Of a stretch of 42,999 bases of DNA, positions 2,811 through 37,886 are shown piece by piece. Within the stretch, counting starts at the first letter, position 1. Every line of letters starts with the position of its first letter. A program made the position numbers and the translations under genes. The stretch lies in the sequence record OZ035738.1. One strand, given 5' to 3'. Source of the DNA: Kagunavirus LM08P2. The notes beneath the pieces were generated by a model. That model was not told where the DNA came from. It did not search any database and saw only the letters and a program-made list of their open reading frames with translations.

Positions 2811-3887
2811 ATGCTATTAACTTTAGCGTCACAGGGTTTATCTATGAGCTTACTTACATCCCTAATCAGCCACCAGATATGGCTGCAACGCGCCGCATCC
2901 GGTGAAGTGAAAGACCTCGCGCCGTTCATTCAGGAAATGCGGGACGAAATCAAACGGCAGGTGCTGTTATTCGGTGACGACGGTCGCAGCACCGAGCGGC
3001 TGAATAAACTGTTACGCGACCTCGAAGAAGCACTGGCAGGGCTTACAGGCGACTGGCAAACAAAGCTGACAGAAGACCTTAAGGAACTGGCGGCGTATGA
3101 GGCTGAGTGGAACGTAAAAACGCTGACGGCTAACGTTAACGCGGAATTTGTTACACCTACCGCTGAGCAGGTGTGGGCCGCTGCTGAGTTTCAACCATTA
3201 TCGTTAAGCGACAAGCCCGTCGATTTCACTAAGCTGATGGATGGCTGGGGTGAAACGGAAGTCGCGCGCCTGGTAACCGGCGTTAAGATGGGCTTTGTCC
3301 AAGGCCAGACGACACGGCAGATTGTTAAGAATGTTGTTGGCGCTGGTGGGCTGGCGGACATCTCCGAGCGTAACGCAGCTACGGTAATCCGCACCGCGCT
3401 GTCGCACGTGTCCAACGAAGCACGTAACGAGACGTACCGTCAGAACGACGACATCATCGAGAAGTACGAGTGGGTGTCAACGCTGGACAGCCGTACCAGT
3501 ACGATTTGCAGAGCCAGGGACGGAATGACGTGGGAAATTGGTAAAGGGCCAATGCCGCCAGCCCATCCGAATTGTCGGTCGTGCACGGCTCCGGTAATCA
3601 GTTCAGAGTTCGACTTCCTCGATAAAGGCGCAAAACGGGCGGCTAAGGGTGCAGATGGCGGTACTCAGGTAAACGCAGACACCACTTATTACGAGTTTCT
3701 GAAACAACAACCGGCGTGGTTTCAGGACCAGGCGCTCGGCCCGGTGCGAGGTAAGATTTTCCGTAACAGCGGTATATCGCCGGAAGAGTTTCGCGTAATA
3801 TCTGTAGATGGTTTCGGGAATCCGCTCACGCTTAAGCAGATGGCGGAACTCGATAAACGTGTTGCTGATTATCTGAAAGGGGATTAA
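2811..3887 (+). CDS. Head morphogenesis protein, Mu F / SPP1 gp7-like
   Basis: 358 aa; C-terminal region LDSRTSTICRARDG...HPNCRSC resembles the conserved Mu-F family core; position after portal. No clear SD; start could be ATG at 2844. Confidence 0.55.
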   Translation: MLLTLASQGLSMSLLTSLISHQIWLQRAASGEVKDLAPFIQEMRDEIKRQVLLFGDDGRSTERLNKLLRDLEEALAGLTGDWQTKLTEDLKELAAYEAEWNVKTLTANVNAEFVTPTAEQVWAAAEFQPLSLSDKPVDFTKLMDGWGETEVARLVTGVKMGFVQGQTTRQIVKNVVGAGGLADISERNAATVIRTALSHVSNEARNETYRQNDDIIEKYEWVSTLDSRTSTICRARDGMTWEIGKGPMPPAHPNCRSCTAPVISSEFDFLDKGAKRAAKGADGGTQVNADTTYYEFLKQQPAWFQDQALGPVRGKIFRNSGISPEEFRVISVDGFGNPLTLKQMAELDKRVADYLKGD

Positions 3888-4348
3888 TGATGGGCTTTTT
3901 CAAAGTAACTGATGTACCTTCACGTCGTGTAGTCCAGTACGCCCGAGTGTCTGGCTCTGGCGAGAACGTGGTATTTATTGAAGACGAAAGTGTACTGGGT
4001 GCGCCAGTGGACGATATGCCGTTTGCAGATAAAACCGGTATTGCGTTACCCGCTGCCGGCATGCTTTACGAGATTCCGTATCTGGCGGACGCTGGTGACG
4101 TGTACTTCTCTGTGCAACCGCAGGACGTTGAACTGGCAGACGGCAGCGCGACTCTCACTGTCGAAGTTAAGGCGGGCAAAGCACCACACGCGCTGACCTG
4201 GTACAAAGACGGTAAGGAAGTGGTAAACGCCCCGGAAGAGGCTTTGTCTCTTACGGTTAACGCGGCAGGCGAATACTTCGTTAAAGTTACTGATGCCGAT
4301 GGAGTAGAGGCCGTGAGTAAAGCGGCGAAGGTTACTAAGCCTGAATGA
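3887..4348 (+). CDS. Ig-like domain protein (possible head decoration)
   Basis: 153 aa; C-terminal LTWYKDGKEV...GEYFVKVTDADG pattern typical of bacterial Ig-like domains; TAATG overlap with upstream gene. Confidence 0.45.
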   Translation: MMGFFKVTDVPSRRVVQYARVSGSGENVVFIEDESVLGAPVDDMPFADKTGIALPAAGMLYEIPYLADAGDVYFSVQPQDVELADGSATLTVEVKAGKAPHALTWYKDGKEVVNAPEEALSLTVNAAGEYFVKVTDADGVEAVSKAAKVTKPE

Positions 4349-4350
4349 TA

Positions 4351-4378
4351 AAAGGCCCCATTACGGGGCCTTAGTTTT
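4351..4378. terminator. Bidirectional intrinsic terminator between convergent genes
   Basis: AAGGCCCC-ATTAC-GGGGCCTT hairpin flanked by A-run upstream and T-run downstream, between + gene ending 4348 and - gene ending 4377. Confidence 0.6.
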
Positions 4379-4622
4379 ATCGCACTCTCATAAATAGCTT
4401 ACCTTTGCGCTGTAACAAATCCATGCCAACTGCACCTTCACCAGATTTGTTCGGACGGCGCATTAAACTAAAGTTCCATACTCTAGCTTTTGAAGCATCT
4501 TTCGCATTGCACACCCAAAGTCTGCCGCTTTCTCTTAGGTCAAATAAGTCCGATATACTGAAATTATTAACCGGTATGAACCCGCTAATGAACTCACGTT
4601 CGCAACTAGGTAATTCCTGCAT
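4377..4622 (-). CDS. Hypothetical protein, opposite-strand insert in head module
   Basis: 81-aa ORF on minus strand with strong SD (GAGGAGGG) upstream of ATG at 4622 and its own promoter at 4649-4677. Confidence 0.5.
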   Translation of the reverse strand: MQELPSCEREFISGFIPVNNFSISDLFDLRESGRLWVCNAKDASKARVWNFSLMRRPNKSGEGAVGMDLLQRKGKLFMRVR

Positions 4623-4648
4623 ACACCCTCCTCGTTTCGATGTAATGA

Positions 4649-4677
4649 ATAGTACCCTATTATATTGGTGTGTGCAA
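4649..4677 (-). promoter_or_regulatory. Sigma70-like promoter, family 2 (TTGCAC-N17-TACTAT)
   Basis: Read on minus strand: TTGCACACACCAATATAATAGGGTACTAT; near-identical copies at 13790-13818(-), 36393-36421(+), 37829-37857(+). Confidence 0.5.
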
Positions 4678-4690
4678 ACTATTTATTTAC

Positions 4691-4743
4691 GTATTCCAGT
4701 TATTCCACTCAATTGTAAATGTTGGAATAAACTATTCGAATAG
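4691..4743. promoter_or_regulatory. Cluster of TGGAATA/TATTCCA repeats upstream of promoter at 4744
   Basis: TATTCCA at 4692-4698 and 4701-4707 with inverted partner TGGAATA at 4723-4729; similar TGGAATA pair at 5485-5512. Confidence 0.4.
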
Positions 4744-4772
4744 TTGACTTTTCACTAAAAATGTGCTAAGCT
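4744..4772 (+). promoter_or_regulatory. Promoter TTGACT-N17-TAAGCT (TG-extended), copy 1
   Basis: TTGACTTTTCACTAAAAATGTGCTAAGCT; nearly identical sequence at 36084-36112. Confidence 0.5.
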
Positions 4773-4779
4773 CCACCTG

Positions 4780-4978
4780 AGCTTGTGAAGTATGAACAAG
4801 CGACCGCGGCGCGGGCAGGTAACGGAGCGGGACGTAAGTCCTGAGTGTAGTTACGCTGACGCGTTCGGAAGGGCCATACTCTATTGCTTGTGTAAAAAGT
4901 AACTGGTTTACTGAGATTACGCCGTTTCTATGTTTAAATGATAAGGACTAGCGCCCCGCTTTATGGCGGGGCTTTACT
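4780..4978 (+). ncRNA. Candidate structured noncoding RNA / leader element, copy 1
   Basis: About 110 nt downstream of the promoter is conserved with the copy at 36119-36230; contains hairpins with compensatory differences between copies; no ORF conserved between copies; ends at a GC-rich hairpin plus T-run at 4951-4978. Confidence 0.45.
4951..4978 (+). terminator. Intrinsic terminator
   Basis: GCGCCCCGC-TTTATG-GCGGGGC followed by TTTACTT, immediately upstream of the spanin RBS. Confidence 0.55.
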
Positions 4979-4996
4979 TATCGAGAAAGGAGAAAC

Positions 4997-5383
4997 ATGA
5001 ATCTTAAAGCAACTGTCGTAGCAGGAGCATGTTTCATCATCCTGTTATACACGCACGGCTACTATCAATACCGCAGCGGCTGGAACGGAGGCAGGGCTAA
5101 TCTAGTTTCGCAGCAACAGCAGAAAGCACAGGCTGAGTTAGCGAAGAAAACACAACGGCAGCAGCAGGACGAATCAAAGGCCGCCGCCGCTGACAACGAA
5201 GGCAAGACGAAATCAGAGGTGATTACCCGTGAAGTCGTTAAGTACATTAAAACGCCTGGCCGCAGCGTGTGCACTTTCGACGATGCTCGCGTCCTGCTCA
5301 AGTCCCGCGCCGTCGCAAACGCCAATTCCATCCCCGGATACGACGATGATGCAGCCGCCATGCAAACTGGCCGCGCCAAGTAG
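4997..5383 (+). CDS. i-spanin (Rz-like inner membrane spanin)
   Basis: 128 aa; N-terminal hydrophobic TMD (ATVVAGACFIILLY) then Q/A/K/E-rich predicted coiled coil; overlapped by a lipoprotein ORF in another frame; strong SD AAAGGAGAAA. Confidence 0.55.
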   Translation: MNLKATVVAGACFIILLYTHGYYQYRSGWNGGRANLVSQQQQKAQAELAKKTQRQQQDESKAAAADNEGKTKSEVITREVVKYIKTPGRSVCTFDDARVLLKSRAVANANSIPGYDDDAAAMQTGRAK

Positions 5384-5492
5384 CGATGCCGATGAGGATT
5401 TAGCCATTGACGTTCAGAACACAGAATGTGTACGGCAACTGCGTCTGAAAGTGTTCATGTTGCAGGATTACGTGAGGAATATTCTGGAATAG
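5229..5492 (+). CDS. o-spanin (Rz1-like outer membrane lipoprotein)
   Basis: 87 aa from GTG start with SD GAGGTGA; signal peptide ending in lipobox LASC; proline-rich mature region; begins inside the i-spanin gene in the +1 frame and extends past its stop. Confidence 0.55.
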   Translation: MKSLSTLKRLAAACALSTMLASCSSPAPSQTPIPSPDTTMMQPPCKLAAPSSDADEDLAIDVQNTECVRQLRLKVFMLQDYVRNILE

Positions 5493-5526
5493 TTGCCTTG
5501 CATGTTGGAATAATTTATTCTTGACA
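5475..5526. promoter_or_regulatory. TGGAATA repeat cluster and promoter-like region upstream of scaffold/capsid genes
   Basis: GAATATTC palindrome 5477-5484, TGGAATA at 5485-5491 and 5506-5512, TTGACA at 5521-5526; shares TGTTGGAATAA...TATTC...TTGAC with 4720-4749. Confidence 0.35.
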
Positions 5527-5574
5527 TGTAAATCCGGGTGGCCCGGGTTCCAACGTCCAGGGGACATACTGACT

Positions 5575-6276
5575 ATGAATCGTTTTTTACGTTATCCGTT
5601 CCAGGAAGAAGCTGGGGCAGAAGATAAAGCTGGTGGCGGTGACGCGCCGAAAATGTTCACCGCTGAAGAAGTTCAGGCGCTGATTGAGAAAGAAGTTGCC
5701 GGGCTTAAGGCCAATCAGGAAGCATTGCTGGCGGAGAAGAAAGAAGCCGCTCGTAAAGCAAAAGAGGCCGAAGAAGAACGGCAGCGCGCGCACCAGGAGG
5801 CGTTAAAAGCCGCTGGTAAGATGGACGAGTTCGAAAAGACGATTCGTAGCCAGTATGACCCGGTGTTAGCCGAGAAAGATGGTCGCATCTCCAAAATGGC
5901 AGAGCGTATCCTCGGCAGTGAACGTAAAGCGGTGTTAGGCTCTTTCGCGGGCGACTTTATTACCCCGGAAGCAGTAGACATTCTTGCTCCGTTCGTTAAG
6001 ACTGAGTTCGAAGGCGATGACGTGGTTACTAAGTTTGTTGGTGCGGATGGCAACGTAATCACGACTGACCCGGAACAGTTCCGCAAATACCTGCGTGAAC
6101 ACAAAGCATTTTCGCATTTGATTAAAGCAAATGCAGCTTCCGGCGGCGGGGCTTCCGGTAGCAAAGGCGGCGGGGCCGCACCAGCGTTTAAAGACATGAG
6201 TGAAGCGGAGCGTTTAGCTCTGTATAAATCGAACCCTGCCGAATTTGAACGGCAACTTAAAGCCCTGAGGAAATAA
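5575..6276 (+). CDS. Scaffolding protein (putative)
   Basis: ORF track start 5521 is TTG; first ATG at 5575. Ala/Glu/Lys-rich, predicted coiled coil (EKKEAARKAKEAEEERQRAHQEALKAAGK), immediately upstream of major capsid gene. Confidence 0.5.
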   Translation: MNRFLRYPFQEEAGAEDKAGGGDAPKMFTAEEVQALIEKEVAGLKANQEALLAEKKEAARKAKEAEEERQRAHQEALKAAGKMDEFEKTIRSQYDPVLAEKDGRISKMAERILGSERKAVLGSFAGDFITPEAVDILAPFVKTEFEGDDVVTKFVGADGNVITTDPEQFRKYLREHKAFSHLIKANAASGGGASGSKGGGAAPAFKDMSEAERLALYKSNPAEFERQLKALRK

Positions 6277-7342: not shown

Positions 7343-7372
7343 CGAGAGGGACTTCGGTCCCTCTTTTCATTT
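7343..7372 (+). terminator. Intrinsic terminator after major capsid gene
   Basis: GAGAGGGAC-TTCG-GTCCCTCTTTTCATTT. Confidence 0.7.
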
Positions 7373-11737: not shown

Positions 11738-11768
11738 CTAAGGCCCCTTTCGGGGCCTTTTTCTTACT
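11738..11768. terminator. Bidirectional intrinsic terminator
   Basis: AAGGCCCC-TTTC-GGGGCCTTTTTCTT with A-rich 5' flank; sits between + major tail gene and - cassette. Confidence 0.7.
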
Positions 11769-11994
11769 CATCAATATTGCTTCGGTATTCCCGTAACTTC
11801 TCCAGACTTTCAATTGCTTCCGCTAAGTCGGTTCCGGTGTCCTTGTGTCCGCGCAAGCCCATGCACAATAGCTTCTTCAATGCGTGCTGTAGCGCCGGGT
11901 CGCGTATATCGAAGGCGCGGAGCACATCATAAACGTCTACTGTCATAGTGCTGCCGTGAGTGTTTGTCATTGTGCGGTTGTATTTTGAAGTCAT
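11764..11994 (-). CDS. Hypothetical protein (76 aa)
   Basis: Last gene of minus-strand cassette; ATGA overlap with upstream gene. Confidence 0.45.
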   Translation of the reverse strand: MTSKYNRTMTNTHGSTMTVDVYDVLRAFDIRDPALQHALKKLLCMGLRGHKDTGTDLAEAIESLEKLREYRSNIDE

Positions 11995-12242
11995 AAATGG
12001 CTCTCATCTATAAGAACGATAACTGCCGAAATCGAAACGGCACCTACATATAAAAGACGCATCTCGGTCGGCGCTATAGCGGTAACAGCTTCGTACAGGC
12101 CCGAGAACACGGACAAATCCATAGAGATAAATGTTAAGACCGCCGCCATTCCTAGTACCGCGGTGGATAAAACCAGTAAAACCAGTAAAACCAGTAAAAC
12201 CACAACAGGCATTATGGCGAAAATCCACAAGGCTTTAATCAT
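11991..12242 (-). CDS. Small membrane protein with VLL repeat
   Basis: 83 aa, two hydrophobic segments; N-terminal (VLL)n tract encoded by a 9-bp tandem repeat; ATGA overlap with upstream gene. Confidence 0.5.
   Translation of the reverse strand: MIKALWIFAIMPVVVLLVLLVLLVLSTAVLGMAAVLTFISMDLSVFSGLYEAVTAIAPTEMRLLYVGAVSISAVIVLIDESHL
12173..12199. repeat. 9-bp tandem repeat CCAGTAAAA x3 perfect (plus partial flanking copies)
   Basis: Read directly; in frame within the 11991-12242 gene, encoding repeated Val-Leu-Leu. Confidence 0.85.
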
Positions 12243-13369
12243 CCCAGCATCTCCGGTGAAATAGTTAAACGTGCGACCTCGCCATATTCGGCGCTATAAG
12301 TAATTACATTTGCGCTACGACCCGACATCCAGCCGCCTCTGGAGGCGTAGGCGTCTTTAGCCGCTAAGGTTCGATGTTGCTCGACAACCATGTTACGGCT
12401 TTCTACAATCTTTTGATGGTGCAGGTGGCCTACGTGGGCGTAGCTGTAAACACTCTCGCCGAACGCTTTGCGGAACTTAGCTATCATAATTGGTTCGATA
12501 GCGTCGAAGCGTGCTTTATGTCCGTGGTGAAAGAACAGCGTCGTTTTGCCGTGTTGGACCATCTTGTAAACATCCGGCGACGTATCGACGAACACACGCG
12601 GCTCATTGTCGTACAGCGTACTGAACATCTCAGCTAACCAAATCATTCCGCTCTCGTCGTGGTTCCCTTGCACAATAAGCAAGCGAACATTTTTATGTTT
12701 AACCAGCGCCATATCGATAACACGGCGGACCATACGAATCATGTAGCGGACCAGTTTCTGATAGCGCGTGTCAGCGTCAAGAACATGACCACTCGCCGGT
12801 GTAACCGCATCCAGACTATCAAAGTGTGCGAAGTCCCCCAGCAGGTTAATAACTCCTGTTCCTGCATCTGGTGCTTTCTGAAACGCAGCATCGAACCACC
12901 GAGAGAACAGGTCTTCCGCAATCTTCATGTCCCAGTCGTCGCCGCTCTCGTCGGCCCAGGCAAGCATACCGAGATGGAAATCAGATACCGTGTAAAGATT
13001 GAGTAGCTTGTCGTCGCGTTTGGCTCGAGTCGCTTTAGCCGGCGCAACTGGCGTAATCTCTGACTTCATGCCTTCAATCACGGCTTTCATCAACTCGACC
13101 TGACGTTCAGCGTCGGTGTCTGTCTTAACCCATTGCAACTTAGTATTGCCGAACTCGTCTACCAGAGACGACGTCCCTTTAATCTTGTAGCCGTCTGGGA
13201 CAAGGTGGCTAACGTCGCGCCCGTGGCCCACGCCTTTCTTAGCCAGCTTCGCTTTACGGATACGAATAACGCGGTCTGAGATGCCGTATTTACGGGCTAT
13301 ATCGATATTCTTCATTCCGGCGTTCAATTCTTCCTGTAACTGTTCGTCGGTTATTTTCTTCCGGGCCAT
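12239..13369 (-). CDS. HTH-fused calcineurin-like metallophosphoesterase (SbcD/Mre11- or CpdA-like fold)
   Basis: Motifs in order DFHLG, GDFAHFD, GNHD, HHGH, GHLHH match the metallophosphoesterase signature; N-terminal ITDEQLQEELNAGMKNIDIARKYGISDRVI looks like a helix-turn-helix; likely start ATG 13369 with SD GAGGAAG (track start 13420 lacks an SD). Confidence 0.6.
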   Translation of the reverse strand: MARKKITDEQLQEELNAGMKNIDIARKYGISDRVIRIRKAKLAKKGVGHGRDVSHLVPDGYKIKGTSSLVDEFGNTKLQWVKTDTDAERQVELMKAVIEGMKSEITPVAPAKATRAKRDDKLLNLYTVSDFHLGMLAWADESGDDWDMKIAEDLFSRWFDAAFQKAPDAGTGVINLLGDFAHFDSLDAVTPASGHVLDADTRYQKLVRYMIRMVRRVIDMALVKHKNVRLLIVQGNHDESGMIWLAEMFSTLYDNEPRVFVDTSPDVYKMVQHGKTTLFFHHGHKARFDAIEPIMIAKFRKAFGESVYSYAHVGHLHHQKIVESRNMVVEQHRTLAAKDAYASRGGWMSGRSANVITYSAEYGEVARLTISPEMLG

Positions 13370-13434
13370 GCTTACTTCCTCGTGTTTAGGATTTGTCCTA
13401 TTTAACCACAGTGCATTCATTTAAATAAAGGCGA

Positions 13435-13761
13435 CTATTTACTTTCCACGCCTATCGCCCACCCAGTCATTACCATTTGCAGACGGGTAGCTGTTAGTAG
13501 GCTGTAGAACGCGTCCCCGTTTTTCTCTACTGAACGTATCACCGTGTATGTTACGGCTTGCGGGGGTAGACCCGATTTACCAACCTCTACGGCGGCCTCA
13601 CACTCACGAACTGTAGAGTCCTTGAATGCCTTTACAATAGTAGGGTCAGCTTTCTTAAGCACGCCAGAAGTCATAAGAACAGATTCGCTAAATACCTGTT
13701 CGCACGGAGATCCAAAAGTAGCAAAAGACATAAACCCCAGAGCTAATACTAATTTACGCAT
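13435..13761 (-). CDS. Secreted/periplasmic small protein
   Basis: 108 aa; N-terminal signal-peptide-like MRKLVLALGFMSFATFGS; SD GAGGA; first gene downstream of promoter 13790-13818. Confidence 0.5.
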   Translation of the reverse strand: MRKLVLALGFMSFATFGSPCEQVFSESVLMTSGVLKKADPTIVKAFKDSTVRECEAAVEVGKSGLPPQAVTYTVIRSVEKNGDAFYSLLTATRLQMVMTGWAIGVESK

Positions 13762-13789
13762 AATTATTTCCTCAGTAAGTTACAAGTGA

Positions 13790-13818
13790 ATAGTACCCTA
13801 TTATATTGGGGTGTGCAA
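13790..13818 (-). promoter_or_regulatory. Sigma70-like promoter, family 2
   Basis: On minus strand TTGCACACCCCAATATAATAGGGTACTAT; drives the 13761-to-11764 cassette. Confidence 0.5.
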
Positions 13819-23805: not shown

Positions 23806-23832
23806 TAAGGCCCCATTTGGGGCCTTTTCTCT
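23806..23832. terminator. Bidirectional intrinsic terminator
   Basis: AAGGCCCC-ATTT-GGGGCCTTTTCTCT with A-run upstream; between convergent modules. Confidence 0.7.
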
Positions 23833-32961: not shown

Positions 32962-33177
32962 ATGCAACCATCTGAACTAGGCATCCGTGTAGAACAACGC
33001 CGTAAAGAACTCGGCATCTCCCAGCGCCGTCTGGCTGTCCTGGCCGGTGTTTCCCAGGGCGCAATTAACCAGCTTGCGCTCGGGGTAACTCAGGACGTCC
33101 GCCCGGCAACGCTGTTTAAACTGGCGGAAGTGCTGGAAGTAGACGCCAAGTGGCTGGCGTTCGGTGAAGGGGCTTAA
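32962..33177 (+). CDS. XRE-family HTH transcriptional regulator (Cro/CI-like)
   Basis: 71 aa; ELGISQRRLAVLAGVSQGAINQL is a canonical XRE helix-turn-helix; strong SD AAGGAG; opposite strand to surrounding operon. Confidence 0.7.
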   Translation: MQPSELGIRVEQRRKELGISQRRLAVLAGVSQGAINQLALGVTQDVRPATLFKLAEVLEVDAKWLAFGEGA

Positions 33178-35520: not shown

Positions 35521-35811
35521 TTATCTATTAGCCAGACATTCCATCAAATGCGCGTACTTACGATAATAATCTACGACAATCTCATCACCGAAATACTGAT
35601 AAACGTACGCTAAGTGGTCAGAGACATCGATGGAAGCCGACATTGTGCTGAGTCTTCGGAGACTAATCAACTGTAATTCTTCTGTAACGCAAAACGGTGA
35701 ATAAGAGTCCAGCTTACAAGAAACGTTAAAGCACAACGCATATTCGCCTTGCACTAAATAAACCATATAAGCACTGTCATTTTCTTTATCGTGGAAAATT
35801 ACACCTTTCAT
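35521..35811 (-). CDS. Hypothetical protein (96 aa)
   Basis: ORF with ATGA coupling to upstream HTH gene. Confidence 0.4.
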   Translation of the reverse strand: MKGVIFHDKENDSAYMVYLVQGEYALCFNVSCKLDSYSPFCVTEELQLISLRRLSTMSASIDVSDHLAYVYQYFGDEIVVDYYRKYAHLMECLANR

Positions 35812-35976
35812 TTCACGTTCTCCTTAATCCACGCCTCAACTTTATTACGGTCAAATGTACCAGGTAAACGGCGACCCATTACTTTAACGCTGCAATCAGG
35901 AAACTTTCCACTCTTAATCCAGTTATTGATTGTCTGGCGGGTGACTCCGATTAATTCTGCAACTTCATTGATAGTC
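35808..35976 (-). CDS. Small HTH DNA-binding protein (AlpA/excisionase-like fold)
   Basis: ATG at 35976 with SD AGGAGAG; MTINEVAELIGVTRQTINNWIKSGKFP is a typical phage HTH; first gene of leftward early operon; track start 36068 is an upstream extension. Confidence 0.55.
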
Positions 35977-36005
35977 ATTTCGCGCTCTCCTGTGTAAGAT
36001 GTATC

Positions 36006-36083: not shown

Positions 36084-36112
36084 TTGACTTTTACTTAAAA
36101 ATATGCTAAGCT
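36084..36112 (+). promoter_or_regulatory. Promoter TTGACT-N17-TAAGCT (TG-extended), copy 2
   Basis: TTGACTTTTACTTAAAAATATGCTAAGCT, nearly identical to 4744-4772. Confidence 0.5.
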
Positions 36113-36118
36113 TCACTG

Positions 36119-36353
36119 AGCTTGTGAGATATCGCAAGCGACCGCGGAGCGGCAGGGAACGCAACGCGTGCCATTAGGCACTTGAGTGTAGTTCCGCTGG
36201 CGCTTTCGGAAGGGCCAAAGTCTATTGTTAATCCCGCCTAAATACCCAAGTCACTGATAATTAAAAGTTTCTATAGTTGCCGTAAGCAAGGTGGAGAGTA
36301 CTTCACTCCGCTGGGGTGGGCTAACGCCCACCCACTGCGTTGCGTACTCTTTT
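36119..36353 (+). ncRNA. Candidate structured noncoding RNA / leader element, copy 2
   Basis: Conserved with 4780-4886 over about 110 nt; no ORF; GC-rich hairpin GGGTGGGC-TAAC-GCCCACCC at 36313-36333 enclosed by GAGAGTAC/GTACTCT and followed by TTTT. Confidence 0.45.
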
Positions 36354-36392: not shown

Positions 36393-36421
36393 TTGCACAC
36401 ACCAACATAATAGGATACTAT
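36393..36421 (+). promoter_or_regulatory. Sigma70-like promoter, family 2
   Basis: TTGCACACACCAACATAATAGGATACTAT upstream of 36456 gene. Confidence 0.5.
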
Positions 36422-36455
36422 TCACTTATAGAAACGAGACAGAGGAGTGAGGGTT

Positions 36456-36644
36456 ATGTTTAAACGTGGTCAGTTGGTTAAAGCTGTAAATAGCAATTAT
36501 TTCATTGTTGAAAGCGAGTCTGCAGTTTTTCCGGGGGCTTATAGGGTAAGTTTTCTCGGGGAAAGATTAGGAGCAATAACCTGGTTCCGTGGAGATGAGC
36601 TAACACTCATCGGCAACAATTTTAAATTCAAAGGGGCGAAGTGA
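36456..36644 (+). CDS. Hypothetical early protein
   Basis: ATG with SD GAGGAG (track start 36447 is GTG). Confidence 0.4.
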   Translation: MFKRGQLVKAVNSNYFIVESESAVFPGAYRVSFLGERLGAITWFRGDELTLIGNNFKFKGAK

Positions 36645-36898
36645 TGGAAGAATTAATTTGTATTGAATCCAGCCAGGATGTGCAGGATTGGTTTGTTAAA
36701 GGTAACAGATATTCGTCCGGAGTATATTCCGACGGCCGTCGATATGTTTTAGACGAAGACGGTGATGAATGGGATTTAAATGACGATGTAAGAGAAACTT
36801 TAACCGTTAGCAGGGTCAATGCTGTTTCTGCCTCATTCACAACGGCATCGAATCATGATGCTCGTGCCGACGACTCTGAGGGAGGTTGCCGTGAATAA
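36644..36898 (+). CDS. Acidic hypothetical protein
   Basis: 84 aa, Asp/Glu-rich; TGATG overlap coupling. Confidence 0.4.
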   Translation: MEELICIESSQDVQDWFVKGNRYSSGVYSDGRRYVLDEDGDEWDLNDDVRETLTVSRVNAVSASFTTASNHDARADDSEGGCRE

Positions 36899-37828: not shown

Positions 37829-37857
37829 TTGCACACACAGATATAATAGACTACTAT
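37829..37857 (+). promoter_or_regulatory. Sigma70-like promoter, family 2
   Basis: TTGCACACACAGATATAATAGACTACTAT upstream of 37887 gene. Confidence 0.5.
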
Positions 37858-37886
37858 TCAGTTATCGAAACGAGAGGAGAGAGAAG

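Follow-up and report, generated by a model that had tools for sequence, protein, structure and literature searches.

A single opposite-strand gene in an exchangeable slot of the head module of Kagunavirus LM08P2, and the regulatory sequences around it

The moron concept of Hendrix and Juhala arose from the lambdoid phages HK97, HK022 and lambda, with genes such as lom and bor as examples, and classical morons are carried by temperate phages, whose prophages express them. Anti-CRISPR acr-aca operons represent accessory and counter-defence hot spots with a strong HTH-controlled promoter. In this study, a small opposite-strand gene in the head module of Kagunavirus LM08P2, encoding a protein of 81 aa, was compared with these and other described systems. 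The window, namely the whole stretch of 42,999 nucleotides analyzed (sequence record OZ035738.1), corresponds to the genome (43 kb), complete or nearly so, of a virulent Guernseyvirinae siphophage.

The 81-aa gene resembles a moron in that it is inserted between genes adjacent in relatives (nine empty loci), in that it has, by sequence only, its own promoter (P2) and terminator, and in that its base composition is unlike that of the flanks. It differs in that the phage carrying it is virulent, so that the expression from a prophage does not apply, and in that P2 is a phage-wide repeated unit with a candidate operator and not a private promoter; the cargo would thus be brought under the temporal programme of the phage itself. 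Lysogeny genes are not annotated in Kagunavirus (PMC7203180), nor in the Bas74 annotation, and since the genus has neither an annotated integrase nor an annotated lysogeny module, the term moron applies here in its broader sense only.

The likeness to acr-aca operons lies in small, quickly exchanged ORFans behind a conserved inverted-repeat promoter and in an HTH protein encoded by the phage, whereas the cassette of the slot is devoid of an HTH gene and the 81-aa protein exhibits no Acr/Aca homology. With the early operons of Kagunavirus (NTEC3 gp38-gp28), the locus shares the same promoter/5'UTR unit, and a 78% homologue is the second gene there; the window gene, in contrast, stands alone and inverted in the late head cluster, and the NTEC3-type versions bear a C-terminal tail of 4-16 aa. 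For the leader RNA beside the gene, though not for the gene itself, HK022 put (RNA features from PMC9378689) and lambda pR'-6S/tR' were used for comparison. The put RNAs let RNA polymerase pass downstream terminators in a manner dependent on the beta' zinc-binding domain. Like put and pR'-6S/tR', the leader is promoter-proximal with two stem-loops, occurs twice in the genome as paralogues that are each preceded by a promoter, has a -10-like sequence at the transcript start, and is followed by a terminator directly ahead of a long operon containing more terminators. This likeness is one of architecture, with no sequence similarity apparent: the leader core spans about 95-125 nt as against about 70 nt for put, and many relatives hold a single leader copy. 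The 81-aa gene follows a familiar pattern, that of a phage ORFan occupying a moron-type slot, and the regulatory logic around it, including the leader RNA, appeared more intriguing than the gene itself.

Position and coding status of the minus-strand gene

Window positions 3800-5500 showed similarity to 304 phage records, nearly all of them from Escherichia or Salmonella Guernseyvirinae, and the closest were GZMU_E2010, RP180 and hz69 (93-96% identity). The genome layout was read by analogy with the fully annotated relative Bas74, which served as the guide for the first three entries below.

0-24 kb, plus strand: head, tail and tailspike genes
24-36 kb, minus strand: replication genes
36-43 kb, plus strand: small uncharacterised genes plus lysis genes
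3887..4348, plus strand: Ig-like head gene (several Ig-family matches, all below the Pfam cut-offs)
4352-4372, both strands: predicted bidirectional intrinsic terminator hairpin, AAGGCCCC-N5-GGGGCCTT
4377..4622, minus strand: protein-coding gene of 81 aa (ORF list, pN/pS, distant homologues)
4626..4633, minus strand: Shine-Dalgarno sequence GAGGAGGG, read directly from the sequence
4649..4677, minus strand: putative P2 promoter TTGCAC-N17-TACTAT, recognised from its repeat family
4693..4996, plus strand: conserved right-hand neighbour outside the cassette, with promoter P1, leader RNA, terminator and spanin SD

Two minus-strand islands break the plus-strand structural block, namely the single gene at 4377..4622 and a four-gene island at 11764-13761. 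The gene preceding the Ig-like head gene is Mu-F-like, and an embedded i-spanin/o-spanin pair, so named in the annotation of relatives, lies downstream of the locus. The initial annotation had wedged the gene between the Ig-like head gene and the spanins. This position was borne out, but the direct contact with the spanins was not; a conserved regulatory region of 375 nt (4623-4996), in which a rightward promoter precedes a structured RNA and a terminator, separates them. On the other side, the hairpin lies 3 nt past the stop of the Ig-like head gene and 4 nt past that of the 81-aa gene, and its terminator-like score on both strands agreed with the earlier claim that the two genes share a bidirectional terminator.

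The hairpin type AAGGCCCC-N4/5-GGGGCCTT recurs where the structural block switches strand, with copies at 4352-4372 (head gene/cargo junction), 11740-11759 (tail gene/minus island junction) and 23807-23826 (tailspike/replication module boundary, as judged from the gene order of Bas74). The island among the tail genes (11764-13818, minus strand), headed by an exact P2 copy at 13787-13818 that would drive it, encodes proteins of 108, 393, 83 and 76 aa. The N-terminus of the 108-aa protein is hydrophobic and signal-peptide-like (judged from the sequence by eye), the 393-aa protein is of the metallophosphatase family and its N-terminus resembled an HTH on visual inspection, and the 83-aa protein is a membrane protein. 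The corresponding island of Bas74 has different content, including a gene annotated as superinfection immunity.

The 81-aa gene runs from an ATG at 4622-4620 to a TAA stop at 4379-4377, and the SD core GGAGG (4631-4627) stands at a spacing of 4 nt from the ATG, as fits the strong SD proposed previously. When compared with the NTEC3 homologue (74% DNA identity), the minus frame displayed a pN of 0.127 and a pS of 0.80. Furthermore, the Salmonella-phage homologues, at only 34-38% identity, retain the motifs LRE-G-L and MR[RK]PNKSG-G, the residues kept being E8, F15, L29-R30-E31, L35 and M54-R55-x-P57-N58-K59-S60-G61-x-G63. An AlphaFold2 (AF2) model computed with the Salmonella-phage members in the alignment was confident (pLDDT 85, pTM 0.72) and represented a small alpha/beta domain; a first run with close homologues only (pLDDT 62) was discarded. 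Based on the pN/pS contrast, the residues kept in distant relatives and this model, 4377..4622 on the minus strand was shown, at the level of comparative analysis, to be a genuine protein-coding gene under strong purifying selection, in line with the minus-strand gene claimed at the outset.

That the real gene is not this ORF, the region being either non-coding or occupied by a functional plus-strand ORF at 4405..4743 (112 aa), might be proposed because the RP180 annotation calls the plus-strand ORF and because chance ORFs as long as the 81-aa gene are frequent in the LM08P2 genome. This proposal is extremely improbable, however: synonymous sites in the minus frame are saturated while non-synonymous sites are conserved, and the minus-frame protein is conserved among distant homologues, whereas the overlapping plus frame contains a stop in NTEC3 and shows a weaker pN/pS contrast. 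The plus-strand ORF also has no SD and would cross the P2 promoter, and the NTEC3 homologue is co-oriented and start/stop-coupled inside its operon. The RP180 gp06 entry (L001 2015-2368), a plus-strand ORF laid over the real minus-strand gene, is likely a public mis-annotation.

The 81-aa protein (MQELPSCEREF...KGKLFMRVR) has a mass of 9.3 kDa, a pI of 9.9 and a GRAVY of -0.37, and no TM segment, signal peptide, lipobox or hydrophobic stretch was found in its sequence. Searches of Pfam, PHROGs and NCBIfam gave no match for the protein or its distant relatives, as anticipated by the earlier reading that it lacks a recognisable domain. PADLOC, which covers defence-system and not anti-defence proteins, returned a single non-significant match (PDC-M02B, E 0.005), a PDB sequence-profile search gave nothing below E 0.6, and Foldseek against PDB and BFVD found no characterised match to the model. 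The homology and structure searches suggested in the initial annotation thus returned only a narrow phage family and no fold match, the predicted fold having no counterpart found in the PDB.

Distribution of the family and exchange of the slot

A single-sequence search recovered 19 clusters of the 81-aa family at 90% identity, an exhaustive HMM search recovered 3 among 1.84 billion representatives at 50% identity, and a profile search of 5.8 billion proteins recovered 26, all of one narrow phage family. Every member comes from phage-like contigs of about 40-45 kb. By tblastn, the gene was detected in only 14 GenBank phage records, against the 304 matching the surrounding head-module region, and one copy is present in the window.

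The contexts of the gene in these 14 records are of three types. In GZMU_E2010 and RP180 it occupies the identical head slot, while in NTEC3, SCS92, 590B, phiSD1 and EP phages the 78% homologue is the second gene of a P2-driven small-gene operon that adjoins replication genes, and is translationally coupled there. A 37% homologue in TS6-like Salmonella phages likewise stands alone on the opposite strand, at another slot of the head module that lies between the spanins and the scaffold; its promoter is near-consensus (TTGACA-17-TAATAT), it has an SD, and its stop is overlapped by a terminator. The family is thus recurrently autonomous or placed behind P2, which supports both mobility and membership of the early/middle class.

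Within the early operon, the 96-97-aa versions (P0014, P0016, NTEC3 gp37) carry an extra C-terminal tail of about 16 aa, located at L004 2740-2794 in NTEC3 gp37, and residues 79-97 of P0014 match the C-terminus of the unrelated phrog_30617 (E 5e-8). These sequence matches suggest that gene swapping in the early operon uses conserved 3' junctions. In the window, an unrelated 85-aa gene (36641-36898, plus strand) holds the position of the family member in the NTEC3 early operon; it opens with the MEEL residues of that member, in keeping with a model in which genes recombine at their starts.

To compare the slot, 39 IMG/VR Kagunavirus loci were fetched via the Ig-like head protein, and the interval from the Ig-like head gene to the spanin was compared in the 36 that were usable. 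These loci hold at least 11 unrelated minus-strand genes, or none. The insertion cassette was delimited by alignment to the empty-slot loci L030 and L008, and the limits were also drawn from alignment with Bas74, hz69, L032 and L025. The cassette and the alternative occupants, all on the minus strand and from the 36-locus comparison, are as follows.

4374..4692, minus strand: insertion cassette (cargo, SD and P2)
Cargo, minus strand: 67-aa acidic protein (Bas74_0006)
Cargo, minus strand: 173-aa protein, the commonest (8 loci), with clamp/processivity-factor-like PHROG matches
Cargo, minus strand: 242-aa N6/N4 DNA methyltransferase
Cargo, minus strand: ORFans of 94/128, 83, 57 and 55 aa
Cargo, minus strand: two kinds of small membrane protein
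Cargo, minus strand: 114-aa lipoprotein (Golestan type)

In nine of the 36 loci the slot is empty, with both cargo and P2 missing, and the terminator is then followed almost directly by the P1 region. Where only the cargo is replaced, the exchanged segment spans about 4374-4645: the similarity of most relatives ends at the hairpin (about 4373-4378) and returns within the 5'UTR (4628-4646). The 81-aa cargo has 42.3% GC (GC3 40%), while the genome has 51.1% and the flanking genes 53-54%, and the whole cassette (4374-4692) has 40.8% GC. By this comparison of loci, the slot was shown to be exchangeable and the 81-aa gene to be swappable cargo in a recombination hot spot. The slot is sharply bounded by the hairpin at 4352-4372 on one side and the P2 5'UTR on the other, and its natural foreign cargo ranges from 0 to about 750 bp; on both grounds it would lend itself to insertions when small Kagunavirus genomes are engineered.

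The 173-aa cargo was found in loci L014, L018, L028, L029, L036, L037, L041 and L043. It has no Pfam match, and its PHROG matches are named 'DNA polymerase processivity factor' and 'RusA-like'; judging from these matches, it may be a half-clamp-like protein.

P2 units, their palindrome and the candidate role of the product

In the P2 promoter of the 81-aa gene, the -35 box TTGCAC (4677-4672) is separated by a 17-nt spacer from the -10 box TACTAT (4654-4649). P2 was defined from a repeat family and not from a generic sigma-70 scan; such a consensus scan of 3800-5600 gave 0 sites. The 20-mer TGAATAGTACCCTATTATAT occurs six times in the genome at up to 3 mismatches, against 0.01 expected, and four copies comprise the whole 32-nt TTGCAC-N17-TACTAT unit together with a conserved 5'UTR and SD behind it; all four point toward an ORF downstream and share the 5'UTR ATCGAAACGAG-GGAG.

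4646-4677, minus strand: P2 copy heading the 81-aa gene, an exact or near-exact copy of the other three
13787-13818, minus strand: 32-nt unit heading the tail-module minus-strand island
36393-36424 and 37829-37860, plus strand: 32-nt units heading two rightward small-gene operons
4648, 13789, 26587, 30251, 32873, 36409 and 37845: genome-wide occurrences of AATAG-N4-CTATT

The membership of the unit at 4646-4677 in this repeat family supports the prediction that the gene has its own family 2 promoter. P2 is conserved in relatives even ahead of unrelated cargo genes. As an alternative -10 box, TATAAT (4664-4659) was rejected; no conserved -35 box lies 16-18 nt ahead of it, whereas all four copies have TTGCAC-N17-TACTAT without variation.

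The 14-bp palindrome AATAG-N4-CTATT, which at the 81-aa gene (4661-4648) overlaps the spacer and the -10 box of P2, occurs seven times in the window, every time inside a promoter. Four sites belong to P2 units, and the other three (26587, 30251 and 32873) lie in minus-strand promoters of the replication module, which are near-consensus (TTGACA-17/18-TATAGT). Seven copies of the P2 motif, given as tgAATAGTa-ccTATTat-T, had earlier been found by PHIRE in Kagunavirus fBC-Eco01 and ascribed to a phage RNA polymerase (PMC9825357); the Bas74 annotation includes no phage RNA polymerase. From its symmetry and placement, AATAG-N4-CTATT looks like the operator of a dimeric regulator with a regulon of seven promoters. 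A candidate for this regulator of the palindrome-bearing promoters is an XRE-type HTH protein of 71 aa (Pfam HTH_3, E 2e-12), the gene of which (32962-33177, plus strand) is an opposite-strand singleton in the minus-strand replication module, converges on the helicase-primase gene, and has two operator-type palindromes beside it, just upstream. A further HTH protein of the genome, of the HTH_17 type, is encoded at 35808-35990. Through the common palindrome, seven promoters are linked to one putative repressor, so that temporal control in this little-studied phage subfamily can be modelled in a testable form.

The orientation and promoter class of the gene had been said to match early genes, and this assignment was strengthened in that the other P2 copies head two small-gene operons and the opposite-strand island of the tail module, and in that the homologues of about 78% identity form the second gene of a P2-type-driven operon in NTEC3, 590B, SCS92 and phiSD1. 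From this promoter class and gene neighbourhood we infer early timing. The one published Kagunavirus time-course, that of K1B4, was too coarse to give usable per-gene timing for the slot. Soon after infection, host sigma-70 RNA polymerase probably fires P2 along with the other operator-bearing promoters, and a dimeric phage HTH protein probably shuts these promoters off later. The shared hairpin would prevent leftward transcription from continuing in antisense through the head genes, and late rightward transcripts would end there too.

We regard it as rather probable, short of certain, that the locus is an inverted accessory cassette of the moron type in a hot spot of the late head cluster, and that its product is probably a dispensable factor for takeover or counter-defence. 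The predicted product has a mass of 9 kDa, is basic and soluble, and combines an alpha/beta fold with an invariant R-x-P-N-K-S-G-x-G loop; it most likely binds a macromolecule of the host or of a competing phage, and would be neither a structural nor a core regulatory protein. It is probably a small, basic, cytoplasmic binding protein that would act in host takeover or counter-defence. A tentative, more specific reading is that the slot serves as a dedicated, operator-controlled 'expression socket' with which Guernseyvirinae swap counter-defence or takeover genes, and that the 81-aa protein would be a new inhibitor of a host factor of immunity or housekeeping.

An early-expressed factor for superinfection exclusion or inter-phage competition, directed against a second infecting phage, appeared less likely still. 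The sporadic distribution of the gene would suit such a role, other occupants of the slot include a lipoprotein (Golestan type) and small TM proteins, and the sister P2-driven island of Bas74 carries a gene annotated as superinfection immunity protein. The classical Sie/Imm/Cor-type factors, however, are envelope proteins, whereas the 81-aa protein is basic and soluble and is devoid of a signal peptide, lipobox and hydrophobic segment. It is only exclusion at the envelope that is disfavoured by these properties, and a cytoplasmic exclusion factor would be compatible with them. Improbable to a greater degree is a phage-internal regulator that binds nucleic acid, for instance an N-, Q- or Cro-like protein acting at the neighbouring promoter or leader RNA. 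The dozen alternative cargo genes provide a compact list of candidates for counter-defence or exclusion screens. Kagunavirus has been reported as highly RM-sensitive (PMC11990801).

The neighbouring promoter P1 and its structured leader RNA

Outside the cassette, a rightward promoter and two hairpins were recognised as follows.

4744-4749 and 4764-4772, plus strand: putative promoter P1 (TTGACT, 17 nt, TGc-TAAGCT), from sequence
4781-4801 and 4804-4868, plus strand: leader RNA hairpins, from a covariance model

A perfect palindrome AACTATTCGAATAGTT at 4730-4745 presents the operator half-sites in reversed order, and this inverted form, CTATT-CG-AATAG at 4732, abuts the -35 box of the promoter at 4744. 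The -10-like repeat TGAGCT (4778-4783) falls at about +1 of the P1 transcript. P1 is followed by a transcribed region of about 200 nt and a strong terminator at 4953-4972, which ends 25 nt ahead of the spanin ATG. A paralogue of the leader element at 36084-36345 (plus strand) opens the second rightward block, ahead of the P2 copy at 36393, so that each of the two rightward transcription blocks of the genome begins with a leader element.

The leader at the head locus is conserved in 182 records of Kagunavirus and Salmonella Jerseyvirus, which leave it without annotation or list it as a hypothetical protein of 36 aa. The two-hairpin covariance model found 69 instances among the loci examined. 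In 31 distinct leader sequences, 96.4% of cells were paired, compared with 28-41% with slid partners, although the alignment was fitted to the model and favours the structure. In this same fitted alignment, compensatory change was observed in nine leader pairs, and all six of the six apical-helix pairs covary. The thermodynamic z-scores of the leader RNA were modest (-2.1 and -1.6), and the structure therefore rests on covariation. Rfam gave no match for the leader RNA at gathering or E-value thresholds.

Further terminators lie within the late operon at 7344, 11740 and 14476, and the spanin and later late genes leave no space for another promoter. By analogy with put or pR'-6S, these two observations suggest that the promoter-proximal leader may control read-through of the late-gene terminators. 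In a Pfam search of ten rightward ORFs, no Q-type antiterminator was detected. The leader region could possibly act instead as a stand-alone sRNA of about 200 nt.

A coding function of the 36-codon ORF in the leader (Bas74_0007) was rejected; its N-terminal frame shifts among variants and the paralogue contains a stop. Bas74_0007 (36 aa, L002 2452-2562), lying inside the structured leader RNA, is thus likely a public mis-annotation.
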